Sequence record: MN067430
From: Escherichia phage vB_EcoP-Ro103C3lw
Length of the DNA stretch: 39,389 bases
Direction: 5' to 3' (one strand)
Shown here: positions 20,113 to 23,054 of the stretch, piece by piece
Layout of the letters: each line of letters opens with the position of its first letter
How positions within the stretch are numbered: position 1 is the stretch's first letter
Notes under the pieces: model-generated
What the model saw: the letters and a program-made list of their open reading frames with translations, nothing else
The model's database searches: none
What the model was told of the DNA's origin: nothing
Made by a program: the position numbers and the translations under genes

Positions 20113-20988
20113 ATGTCCCAATCAGTTTATGCCGAGTTCGGCGTTAGCTCTAATGCAATCACTGGTTCCGTCGAGGACCTGAACGAACACCAACAGTCTA
20201 TGCTGGAGAAGGACGTAGCTGTCCGTGATGGCGATGACGCTATTACCTTCAAGCAACTGGAAGCCGAGCGACAGGAAGAGGCGACCGAAGAAGAACTCGA
20301 AGTCGAGACCGATGAGGAAGAAGAGGTTGAAGAAACCGAAGACTCAGAAGGTCAGGACCAAGAGTTCGTTGAGCTGGGTGAAACTCCGAAAGAGCTGACC
20401 GAAAGTGTCACCGCTCTGGACGAGAACGAAGCGGCTTTCGACGACATGGTGTCTGCTGCTGTAGAAGCTGGCAAGGTCACTGCTGATGACATCACCGCTA
20501 TCAAGGCTGAATACGCCTCTAAAGGTGAACTGTCCGAGGCATCCTACGCTAAGCTGGCTGAAGCTGGTTACACCAAGCGTTTCGTCGATTCGTTCGTCCG
20601 TGGTCAGGAAGCTCTGGCTGAGCAGTATGCTGCGGGTGTGGTTCGCTACGCTGGTGGTGCTGAGCAGTTCAACCGCATCCTATCTCACCTTGAGGCCAAC
20701 GATAAGTCAACCAAGGAAGCCCTTGAGTCTGCAATCATCCGTAAGGACCTTGCGACCGCTAAGGCCATCCTGAATCTGGCTGGTCGTAACCTCGGTAAGA
20801 CTCGCGGTGTTGCACCTCAGCGTACTCTGACTACTCAGGGTAAACCAGCAGTCGCTGCACCGAAGGTCCAGACCGAAGGCTTCAGCTCCAAGTCTGACAT
20901 GATTAAGGCCATGAGCGACCCGCGCTATCTTCGTGATGCTGCTTACACCAACTCTGTCCGCACGAAGGTTGCTGCTTCCAGCTTCTAA
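20113..20988 (+). CDS. gp9: Capsid assembly (scaffolding) protein (T7 gp9 homolog)
   Basis: 291 aa, highly acidic with Glu-rich tract; sits between portal and capsid genes. Confidence 0.85.
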   Translation: MSQSVYAEFGVSSNAITGSVEDLNEHQQSMLEKDVAVRDGDDAITFKQLEAERQEEATEEELEVETDEEEEVEETEDSEGQDQEFVELGETPKELTESVTALDENEAAFDDMVSAAVEAGKVTADDITAIKAEYASKGELSEASYAKLAEAGYTKRFVDSFVRGQEALAEQYAAGVVRYAGGAEQFNRILSHLEANDKSTKEALESAIIRKDLATAKAILNLAGRNLGKTRGVAPQRTLTTQGKPAVAAPKVQTEGFSSKSDMIKAMSDPRYLRDAAYTNSVRTKVAASSF

Positions 20989-21009
20989 TATACCCTCACT
21001 ATAGGGAGA
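20987..21009 (+). promoter_or_regulatory. Phage RNAP promoter (strong phi10-type, before the capsid gene)
   Basis: taatataccctcactatagggagacc; +1 G at 21004; followed by a gggagacc...ggtttccc 5' stem-loop as in the T7 gene 10 leader. Confidence 0.85.
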
Positions 21010-21114
21010 CCAAGAGTTACGACTCAAGGTTTCCCTGTAACTTCAGTCCATACGGATTGGGCACAACGAAGTCACTAAACTTTATTTCTTTCATTCGAAT
21101 AGGAGAATTATCAT

Positions 21115-22164
21115 ATGGCAAACGTTCCGGGTCAGAAAATTGGTGCAGACCAAGGTAAGGGTAAATCTAGTGCAGACCAGCTCGCACTGTTCCTTAAGGT
21201 CTTCGCTGGTGAAGTCCTGACAGCTTTCACCCGTCGTTCTGTTACCGCTGACAAGCATATTGTCCGCACCATTCAGAACGGTAAGTCCGCACAGTTCCCG
21301 GTAATGGGTCGCACCTCCGGTGTGTATCTTGCTCCCGGTGAGCGCCTGAGCGATAAGCGCAAGGGTATTAAACACACTGAGAAGGTTATCACCATTGACG
21401 GTCTGCTGACCGCTGACGTGATGATTTTCGACATCGAAGACGCTATGAACCACTACGACGTGGCTGGCGAGTATTCCAACCAGCTCGGTGAGTCTCTGGC
21501 TATCGCCGCTGATGGCGCGGTACTGGCTGAGATGGCGATTCTGTGTAACCTCCCGGCTGCATCCGACGAGAACATCGCTGGTCTGGGCAAGGCGTCCGTG
21601 CTGGAAGTTGGTACTAAAGCAGACCTGAACACTCCAGCCAAGCTGGGTGAGGCGATTATCGGTCAACTGACCATCGCACGTGCTAAGCTGACTAACAACT
21701 ACGTGCCTGCTGGCGACCGCTACTTCTACACCACACCTGACAACTACTCCGCGATTCTGGCGGCTCTGATGCCTAACGCTGCTAACTACGCTGCGCTGAT
21801 TGACCCTGAGACGGGCAACATACGTAACGTAATGGGCTTCGTTGTGGTTGAAGTTCCTCACCTGACTCAGGGTGGTGCTGGCGAAACCCGTGGTGACGAT
21901 GGTATTTCCATTGCTTCCGGTCAGAAACACGCATTCCCGGCGACCTCCAGCTCTACCGTTAAGGTTGCTCTGGACAACGTTGTGGGCCTGTTCTCTCACC
22001 GTTCTGCTGTTGGTACTGTTAAGCTGCGTGACTTGGCGCTGGAACGTGACCGCGACGTCGATGCTCAGGGCGACCTGATTGTCGGTAAGTACGCTATGGG
22101 TCACGGTGGTCTGCGTCCAGAAGCGGCAGGCGCACTGGTTTTCACAGCGGCGTCAGCGGGTTAA
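21115..22164 (+). CDS. gp10A: Major capsid protein (T7 gp10A homolog)
   Basis: 349 aa; LALFLKVF.GEVLTAF.R.SVT...H.VR.I..GKSAQFPV.GRT...YLAPGE.L.DKRK.IKHTEKVITIDGLLTADV.I.DIEDAMNHYDV..EY..QLGESLA.AADGAVLAE, YAMGHGGLRPEAAGA. Confidence 0.97.
   Translation: MANVPGQKIGADQGKGKSSADQLALFLKVFAGEVLTAFTRRSVTADKHIVRTIQNGKSAQFPVMGRTSGVYLAPGERLSDKRKGIKHTEKVITIDGLLTADVMIFDIEDAMNHYDVAGEYSNQLGESLAIAADGAVLAEMAILCNLPAASDENIAGLGKASVLEVGTKADLNTPAKLGEAIIGQLTIARAKLTNNYVPAGDRYFYTTPDNYSAILAALMPNAANYAALIDPETGNIRNVMGFVVVEVPHLTQGGAGETRGDDGISIASGQKHAFPATSSSTVKVALDNVVGLFSHRSAVGTVKLRDLALERDRDVDAQGDLIVGKYAMGHGGLRPEAAGALVFTAASAG
22137..22143 (+). other. Candidate -1 programmed ribosomal frameshift slippery site (GGTTTTC)
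   Basis: G GUU UUC lies 6 codons before the gp10A stop, in the same relative position as the T7 gene 10 shift site; the -1 frame is open from here to 22427. Confidence 0.6.
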
Positions 22165-22427
22165 CGACCTTTAAGGCCCTCTCTACAGAGGGTCCTACCT
22201 TAGAGACATACAGTTCTACGGTGGGAACCAGCTTGAAGGTTGACTTCCCTGAGCTTTCAGATGTGACCGATTGGTCGCTTCTTGAGGTGACTACGCCTGA
22301 TGGTGTTAGCTACTCCCGTAGAACCAACAGTCTCTACTTCAAGGCCACCTCTGGCGTGGAAGGTCTGGTGATTGTTTGGTATGATGGTGCGCCTGTTCGT
22401 TCCTTCAACGTATCTTTCACAAACTAA
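22143..22427 (+). CDS. gp10B: Minor capsid protein extension (gp10B-like), translated only after a -1 frameshift from gp10A
   Basis: The -1 frame is open from 22089 to TAA at 22425..22427; the supplied ORF 22221..22427 covers its distal part but has no SD; 95 aa would follow the shift. Confidence 0.55.
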   Translation, partial: HSGVSGLTTFKALSTEGPTLETYSSTVGTSLKVDFPELSDVTDWSLLEVTTPDGVSYSRRTNSLYFKATSGVEGLVIVWYDGAPVRSFNVSFTN

Positions 22428-22431
22428 TTGA

Positions 22432-22473
22432 AACCCCTTGGGTGCCTTCGCGGGTGCTTGAGGGGTTTTTTTG
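22432..22473 (+). terminator. T-phi-like late transcription terminator
   Basis: aaccccttgggtgccttcgcgggtgcttgaggggttttttt: GC hairpin plus U-run, near-identical in form to T7 T-phi (aaccccttggggcctctaaacgggtcttgaggggttttttg). Confidence 0.85.
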
Positions 22474-22487
22474 CTTAAGGAGGGCCT

Positions 22488-23054
22488 ATGGCTCAATACA
22501 TCCCACTGAACGTTAACGATGACTTAGATGCAGTCAACGATATGTTAGCGGCTATCGGTGAACCAGCAGTCCTACAGCTTGACGATGGCAACGCAGACGT
22601 CTCGAACGCTCAGCGCATCCTACATCGGGTCAACCGTCAGGTCCAAGCTAAGGGCTGGAACTTTAACATCAACGAGGCTGCGGTCCTCACACCGGATGTC
22701 CAAGACCAACGGATTCGATTCCTGCCGTCTTACCTCCGGGTCATGACTACAGGTGCGACCAGCTACTACAGCAACATGGGTGGCTATCTCTATGACCTCA
22801 GTACTCAGTCCACGACCTTCACGTCTGCGATTACCGTCGAGCTGGTGGAGATGAAACCATTCTCTGAGATGCCTGTGGTATTCCGTGACTACATCGTGAC
22901 TAAGGCAAGCCGTGAGTTCAACGCTAAGTTCTTCGGTAGTCCCGAGTCTGAAGCCTATCTGAGGGAGCAGGAAGCAGAACTGTACCAGCAGGTAATGGAG
23001 TACGAGATGGACACCGGGCGCTATAACATGATGTCTGACATCGGTCGAGACTAA
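22488..23054 (+). CDS. gp11: Tail tubular protein A (T7 gp11 homolog)
   Basis: 188 aa; position and size; SD aaggaggg. Confidence 0.85.
   Translation: MAQYIPLNVNDDLDAVNDMLAAIGEPAVLQLDDGNADVSNAQRILHRVNRQVQAKGWNFNINEAAVLTPDVQDQRIRFLPSYLRVMTTGATSYYSNMGGYLYDLSTQSTTFTSAITVELVEMKPFSEMPVVFRDYIVTKASREFNAKFFGSPESEAYLREQEAELYQQVMEYEMDTGRYNMMSDIGRD

Follow-up and report, generated by a model that had tools for sequence, protein, structure and literature searches.

The genome of Escherichia phage vB_EcoP-Ro103C3lw (sequence record MN067430) contains an open reading frame that runs on past the end of the major capsid gene, and the question raised by this locus is whether this frame is read as a separate small gene or as the C-terminal part of a longer capsid protein produced by ribosomal frameshifting. 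The window, which is the whole stretch of DNA analysed (39,389 nucleotides), carries at this place the late genes of a T7-like Kayfunavirus, and positions 21000–22500 share 96–97% identity with Cronobacter phages GW1 and Dev2 and Citrobacter phages SH4 and SH5. An earlier reading made from the letters alone, referred to here as the sequence-only reading, had proposed a capsid gene with a T7-type slippery site and an unusually long −1 frame extension. The comparisons and structure predictions described below argue strongly that the gene 10 mRNA yields the major protein 10A and, by a −1 ribosomal slip, a minor protein 10B that would display an Ig-like domain; the frameshift reading is supported because the site, the open frame and its phase are conserved together with the domain while start codons are not.

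The capsid gene and its slippery site

The features around the end of gene 10 are as follows.

20987..21009, + strand: phage-RNA-polymerase promoter for gene 10, AATATACCCTCACTATAGGGAGA; the homologous 23-mer is promoter 'phi' in the Escherichia phage Ro45lw record
21115..22164, + strand: gene 10A, an open reading frame for the major capsid protein, 349 aa, 36.5 kDa
22137..22143, + strand: slippery heptamer G_GTT_TTC in zero-frame phase, the proposed −1 shift site, same as the T7 site
22143..22427, + strand: −1 frame extension of the predicted 10B, 94 codons after Phe343 plus TAA

Gene 10A shares 97% DNA identity with its counterparts in Cronobacter phage GW1 and Citrobacter phage SH4, and residues 1–344 of its product match the solved T7-like capsid chains 9vvq, 7y23 and 2xvr. 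In the zero frame, the heptamer is read as CT[G GTT TTC], i.e., Val342 and Phe343, and is followed by six sense codons and the stop TAA at 22162–22164, exactly where the sequence-only reading had placed it; no second GGTTTTC is present on the + strand of the 39.4-kb window. The claim that both the sequence and the position of the site are of the T7 type also holds, as the same heptamer lies at the homologous Val-Phe in T7 (PMC1635266, PMC5009743). The context of the gp10 C-terminus, ...GHGGLRPEAAGA(L/V)VF, is common to T7 and Ro103C3lw, and the residues around the heptamer are GHGGLRPEAAGALVF here and GAVVF in T7, with the homologous Val-Phe near the gp10 C-terminus in both. It has been reported that the slip site of T7 gene 10 is GGTTTTC / G_GU, and that about 10% of ribosomes shift at this documented site (PMC1635266, PMC5009743).

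In the −1 frame, no stop occurs from 22089 until the TAA at 22425–22427, in agreement with the end at 22427 given by the sequence-only reading; counted from GGT, this frame contains 96 sense codons, which add 94 new residues after Phe343. The predicted 10B would thus comprise 343 + 94 = 437 aa with a mass of 46.1 kDa, compared with 349 aa and 36.5 kDa for 10A, and its predicted junction peptide is YAMGHGGLRPEAAGALVFHSGVSGLTTFK. Of the 23 long ORFs on the + strand, no other stays open in the −1 frame past its own stop for as long as gene 10 (88 codons); the runner-up reaches 57 codons. The description of the extension as unusually long stands in comparison with T7 and K1F, where 56 and 48 codons follow the site in the −1 frame (the T7 10B being 53 aa longer than 10A), but fails in comparison with the T3-type extension (~86 aa) and that of phage phi15 (94 codons).

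In the proposed mechanism, most ribosomes would read to the TAA at 22162 and produce 10A of 349 aa, while a minority would slip one base back on G_GUU_UUC (22137–22143), where tRNA-Val in the P site would exchange GUU for GGU and tRNA-Phe in the A site UUC for UUU. The slipped ribosomes would go on in the −1 frame to 22427 and produce 10B of 437 aa, which would consist of the full capsid fold, a flexible linker of ~20 residues and an Ig-like sandwich of 76 residues. The C-terminus of T7-type gp10 faces the outer capsid surface; the domain would therefore be displayed outside the head on a fraction of the capsid subunits. T7 and K1F display likewise builds on the external C-terminus of gp10 (PMC1635266, PMC6277420). 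We infer with high confidence that the extension is expressed, and we also infer the actual slippage, its efficiency, the incorporation of 10B into virions and the ligand of the domain.

Conservation of the extension and rival explanations

When the 96-residue −1 peptide from the slip site onward was used as a tblastn query, the same extension was matched in at least 454 deposited phage genomes. Full-length alignments in a single segment were obtained in Kayfunavirus (75–99% identity) and in Klebsiella Przondoviruses (~45%), and Citrobacter phage CR8 and Dickeya phage JA10 were also matched. The set of 64 loci that carry the domain covers Kayfunavirus, Przondovirus, Caroctavirus, Ningirsuvirus and one unclassified contig. 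GTTTTC is present in all 64, CTGGTTTTC, i.e., with G before GTT, in 60 of them, and a stop-free −1 frame leads from GTTTTC into the conserved VTDWS-containing domain at every locus. In the 24 distinct sequences tested for stops, the −1 frame has none, while the other two frames have 1–7. The slip site is separated from the VTDWS motif by 38, 39, 42, 43 or 54 codons across the relatives, and the phase is always kept. In addition, when 14 distinct close relatives are compared, the sites that vary in the domain fall on −1 codon positions 1, 2 and 3 in the ratio 14/8/43, a third-position bias that points to purifying selection on the −1 frame.

The best surviving alternative is that 22221..22427 or 22233..22427 is an independent small gene with its own GTG or TTG start, which would give a free protein of 64–68 aa. 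Most GenBank records annotate the region in this way ('hypothetical protein' or 'gp10.1'), the ORF being listed mechanically, and the TTG at 22233 is preceded at a suitable spacing by GGTGGG, with a duplex energy of −6.2 kcal/mol against −7.0 kcal/mol for gene 10 itself; however, this moderate SD-like sequence occurs in the Ro103C3lw genome only and is not kept in relatives. Some initiation at this TTG may take place alongside the frameshift. The GTG at 22221, which is also in the −1 frame, has no SD-like sequence before it (duplex −2.7 kcal/mol), as the sequence-only reading had noted. Neither start is conserved: the GTG is replaced by GTA in IME278 and EcpYZU01, the TTG is replaced by CTG in Ro45lw, no plausible start codon for the extension was found in CR8 or Klebsiella phage 175007, and no conserved start codon with a ribosome-binding site was found among the relatives compared. 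The starts given by gene callers and by the deposited 'genes' differ from record to record, with lengths of 49–87 aa, while homology and the open frame reach upstream to the slip site in all lineages. Furthermore, the structural model places its first strand (residues 24–28) ahead of the GTG (residue 29) and the TTG (residue 33) inside strand 2, so initiation at either codon would drop predicted beta-strand 1 and give a truncated domain. An independent gene would also leave unexplained why the phase to GGTTTTC is kept through the indels of the linker, and we consider it unlikely. Both candidate start codons (GTG 22221, TTG 22233) are covered by the linker peptide ALSTEGPTLETYSSTVGTSLK of the predicted 10B. 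By comparison of the sequences, the extension is tied phylogenetically to the slip site and not to any start codon, and the −1 frameshift put forward in the sequence-only reading is supported by the site kept at 64 of 64 loci with starts that are not conserved.

Production of the extension by coupled reinitiation after the 10A stop, as the ATG in TAATG might allow in the subgroup resembling LS2 and LS3, is very improbable. LS3 and the related proteins P0001–P0004 do begin with MTF..., their ATG sharing bases with the 10A stop, but the corresponding codon in Ro103C3lw is ACG, which is no start, and most lineages are without any start near the 10A stop; moreover, the distance from the 10A stop to the domain varies, while the phase to the heptamer is constant. 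There is similarly very little probability that the phage RNA polymerase slips on the run of four T and leaves some mRNAs one U short. Such extensions can also arise by transcriptional slippage, a known alternative (PMC5009743), and the CR8 record marks 'tttt' as the site, but four T are far below the run lengths established for efficient slippage (PMC5009743), in T7 the same site was characterised as a ribosomal one, and the conserved phase of G_GTT_TTC, with G before GTT at 60 of 64 loci, would be unexplained. The least probable explanation is that the open −1 frame is a decaying remnant whose expression has been lost, as half of the domain has been lost in one genome (L016), but the strong third-position bias, the intact frame, the confidently predicted fold and 18 residues that are invariant across genera at ~45% identity all speak against it. 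The half that is missing from L016, a natural variant, is the C-terminal one, which suggests that the Ig-like domain is probably dispensable in the laboratory.

Natural controls for the −1 ribosomal slip are found across the subfamily. In Pseudomonas phage FRS (Ghunavirus), the corresponding sequence is CTG GTC TTC, by which the heptamer is broken synonymously, and the −1 extension is absent; phage phi15 (Troedvirus) has GGTTTTC and an extension of 94 codons with a different domain, which is Big_2-like by eye; T7, K1F, Erwinia phage L1 and Berlinvirus have GGTTTTC and a short Ala/Glu/Lys-rich tail; and the T3-like phage phiYeO3-12, in which GTTTTC is absent, slips at C_CCA_AAG and has a 10B of 433 aa compared with a 10A of 347 aa, its extension being a Pfam Big_2 domain (E = 2.7e-10). 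Because of these controls, the heptamer can be said, as far as the genomes compared reach, to go together with a −1 extension regardless of what is encoded there. Aligned with K1F DNA, the window loses its homology at 22157 and regains it at 22422, so that the extension is a cassette cleanly exchangeable between the slip site and the terminator. It has been reported that GFP fused to the end of the −1 product of K1F gives fluorescent virions (PMC6277420), from which it follows that the site is functional and the product displayed in the same genus.

The Ig-like domain, its linker and RNA structures

The 94 residues added in the −1 frame divide into two predicted parts.

22143..22196, + strand: linker of ~20 residues, predicted disordered (pLDDT ~44, residues 1–20), with a length that varies among relatives
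22197..22424, + strand: predicted Ig-like beta-sandwich domain of 76 residues with seven strands, PHROG 7473

The beta-rich character suggested by the sequence-only reading is reproduced by AlphaFold2, which, with an alignment of 30 sequences, predicts a seven-strand Ig-like sandwich over residues 21–96 (pLDDT ~91). The best Foldseek match in the PDB is 2L04, the C-terminal Ig-like domain of lambda gpV (E = 1e-3, TM 0.55–0.57), followed by filamin repeats, LigA and the N4 capsid decoration protein, while the best matches in BFVD are the 'minor capsid protein' of Pectobacterium phage PP81 and BIG2 proteins. The lambda gpV domain is also a small, Ig-like and non-essential domain at the C-terminus of a major virion protein; it differs in its carrier, a tail tube protein, and in its in-frame fusion, and the sequence identity is only 18%. 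Other phage Ig-like display domains include T4 Hoc and the N4 decoration protein. The Ig-like sandwich is the fold class of the display domains that are added to capsid and tail proteins by frameshifting (PMC5009743). By analogy, the domain of Ro103C3lw is probably a weak adhesin for surface carbohydrate.

At the sequence level, the extension matches PHROG 7473 with E = 1.3e-35 over profile positions 2–82 of 82 and query residues 17–96; the start of the profile falls 12 residues before the GTG at 22221. The searches found neither a Pfam domain nor a sequence relative in the PDB for the extension, the carboxypeptidase matches returned by the Pfam and PDB searches (E = 0.04–0.2) being at chance level. 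The Pfam Big_2 profile (PF02368) did not match the versions from the window, the Przondoviruses or L017, while a T3-type control scored 40.5 bits, and kinship with the T3-type Big_2 extension was rejected by hhalign (probability 0.15%). As a sequence family, the extension domain is distinct from Big_2 in these profile comparisons. In an exhaustive profile search, the family proper comprises about six clusters at 50% identity, all made of short ORFs (49–84 aa) that resemble gene calls from T7-like contigs, and weak repeated profile matches occur in multi-domain Big_2, Big_1 and BACON proteins. No in-frame fusion with a capsid domain ('Rosetta stone') was found in the exhaustive representative search or in the search with full-length 10B; one candidate capsid fusion, P0149 (426 aa), is actually an invasin/Big_1 repeat protein.

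Two RNA structures accompany the −1 frame.

22169..22205, + strand: RNA hairpin in the linker coding region, core stem 22175–22198, 25–31 nt past the heptamer
22430..22476, + strand: T-phi-like terminator, a hairpin with an 18-bp stem, CCCC in the 5' arm and a T-run

The terminator-like hairpin follows directly on the TAA at 22427, which agrees with the earlier claim that the −1 frame ends just before T-phi; it lies ~265 nt past the gene 10 stop, and gene 11 then starts at 22488. Its CCCC-bearing element is AAACCCCTTGGG (22431–22442), and in T7 the CCCC of T-phi reportedly has a part in frameshifting (PMC5009743). The 351-nt region folds with z = −3.58, probably owing mainly to the 18-bp terminator stem. 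A classical stimulator 5–9 nt past the heptamer was not found here, as in T7.

The local fold of the linker hairpin in the window is not significant by itself (z = −1.06), and LS3 preserves its stem through GU/AU/GC changes, the pairing having been worked out by hand. Each lineage has a hairpin 19–31 nt downstream of the heptamer, although a search for a single RNA structure common to all genera downstream of the site found none (consensus energy −1.2 kcal/mol). In the Przondoviruses, an 18-bp stem begins 19 nt past the heptamer; in 32 distinct sequences, 98.8% of the cells are paired, compared with 35–52% when the partners are slid, and double changes, non-synonymous in the linker, are present in two pairs, AU to GC in 10 sequences and CG to UA in 8. 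Since the sequences are related, these compensatory changes may reflect only one or two events. It is a tentative and rather doubtful proposal that the hairpins of the different lineages act as a frameshift stimulator at a non-classical distance, for which a possible mechanism is that the hairpin would halt the leading ribosome and the next ribosome would queue on the slip site. If this is true, such a hairpin would help to explain why a proximal stimulator is missing in T7-type gene 10 frameshifting, which has been a puzzle for a long time.

Known systems, annotation and exchangeable cassettes

The mechanism itself is already known, being of the T7 10A/10B type, and the CR8 homologue is already annotated as a frameshifted 10B. 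T7 has the same heptamer in the same phase at the homologous Val-Phe, a −1 ORF that ends before T-phi, and CCCC in the 5' arm of that terminator, but the tails of T7 and K1F have no Pfam match and no similarity to the extension of Ro103C3lw, which is folded, Ig-like and 94 codons long. T3 and phiYeO3-12 (Teetrevirus) follow the same logic at the same size, with a C-terminal Ig-like domain on a minority of subunits (PMC5009743); they differ in that ~86 aa with a Big_2 domain are added at another slip site, whereas the domain of Ro103C3lw is not Big_2. The addition of an Ig-like domain to the capsid protein by frameshifting is thus established for T3 and others (PMC5009743). Similarly, in Pseudomonas phage phi15, ORF37 ('putative capsid decoration protein') is a beta-rich −1 ORF of 94 codons with the site in the same place, but it has a T3-type Big_2 look, as judged by eye, and is annotated as a separate gene.

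The closest annotated parallel is Citrobacter phage CR8 (HG818824, Caroctavirus), whose extension is homologous (49% identity over residues 10–90) and follows the same GGTTTTC, although CR8 belongs to another genus and has a shorter linker (91 codons). Its record contains a joined CDS for 10B with the remarks 'predicted translation by a -1 internal frameshift' and 'matches in mass spectrometry analysis', the latter of which may rest on peptides shared with 10A; the CR8 genome announcement is silent on the 10B extension (PMC4038870). For Kayfunavirus and Przondovirus, no proteomic or cryo-EM evidence of the extension was found in the literature: the virion proteomics of SH4 considered annotated ORFs only, so the extension was undetectable (PMC4925675), and the solved related capsids (9vvq, 7y23 and T7) cover the 10A part only.

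Three points are worth recording at this locus, namely the widespread mis-annotation, the non-Big_2 family and the use of one site with several cassettes, while the concept itself is not new. More than 400 records list the extension as a hypothetical gene of its own, the start of which is arbitrary, and the fused 10B product was not found among the top 120 capsid homologues; the predicted 46-kDa capsid species is thus absent from protein databases. Among the carriers of the extension are many candidates for therapy, namely phages of Klebsiella, Enterobacter, Salmonella and E. coli, and the Ig-like domain may affect adherence to capsule or mucus and hence the behaviour of such phages in vivo. 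One conserved slip site, near the 3' end of gene 10, accepts at least three unrelated C-terminal cassettes that can be exchanged for one another, i.e., the short charged tail, the Big_2 domain and the Ig-like domain of PHROG 7473, and the cassettes can differ inside one genus, as in K1F and Ro103C3lw. For surface display at low copy number, the slip site would be a position already available in these phages.

Implied exchange of 10B extension cassettes

Within Kayfunavirus alone, there are two unrelated extension cassettes of 10B, the predicted frameshifted capsid protein: the K1F cassette encodes a T7-like charged tail, whereas that of the window encodes an Ig-like domain. Since these two unrelated extensions of one genus (window 22157-22422; 1182-1306 in L019, the K1F gene 10 locus) sit between flanks that are 83–85% identical, the sequence comparison implies recombinational exchange of 10B cassettes. 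In the locus of Pseudomonas phage phi15 (L028), a -1-frame ORF at 1656-1940, immediately 3' of the capsid-gene GGTTTTC, is annotated as a separate gene, "putative capsid decoration protein"; judged by eye, it carries a domain like Big_2, the Pfam Ig-like family of T3-type 10B, and it is probably a further unannotated 10B frameshift product.

Variation in the Ig-like domain

A natural variant of this region occurs in L016 (IMGVR_UViG_2974604219_000001), in which locus positions 1672-1790 correspond to window 22308-22477. This variant lacks the Ig-like domain's C-terminal half as well as most of the stem of the T-phi terminator, and this natural loss suggests that the domain is dispensable. The lost part is replaced, directly 5' of gene 11, by a short ORF that is preceded by an SD-like sequence of its own and encodes a hydrophobic peptide of 31 aa (MIMFYLLTALGLFVSFWAIILLTGPCSPYDR).

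The window itself has TGG (Trp) at 22377-22379, within "VIVWYDG", on a β-strand of the predicted domain. None of the 38 relatives aligned there has Trp at this position; the majority carry Gly ("VGYDG") or Ser ("VSFDG"), with Glu and Asn as singletons. The substitution may be real, or it may be a sequencing or assembly variant.

Features around the proposed slip site

In Przondovirus (loci L005, L022-L024 and L033-L074), an 18-bp RNA hairpin lies within the linker coding region, 19-62 nt 3' of GGTTTTC, a non-classical spacing; its window equivalent is 22169-22205. The hairpin shows compensatory AU/GC and CG/UA changes, which alter the encoded linker residues. Two other features concern alternative reading frames:

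L020 (Escherichia virus LS3 locus), 1326-1330: TAATG overlap (proteins P0001-P0004)
Window 21091-22104, minus strand: 337-aa ORF antisense to nearly the entire capsid gene

In the LS2/LS3 subgroup, a -1-frame ATG overlaps the 10A stop codon, and therefore an 87-aa product could also be made by termination-reinitiation; the window codon at the position of this ATG is ACG. The antisense ORF is probably a by-product of codon bias in the highly expressed capsid gene.
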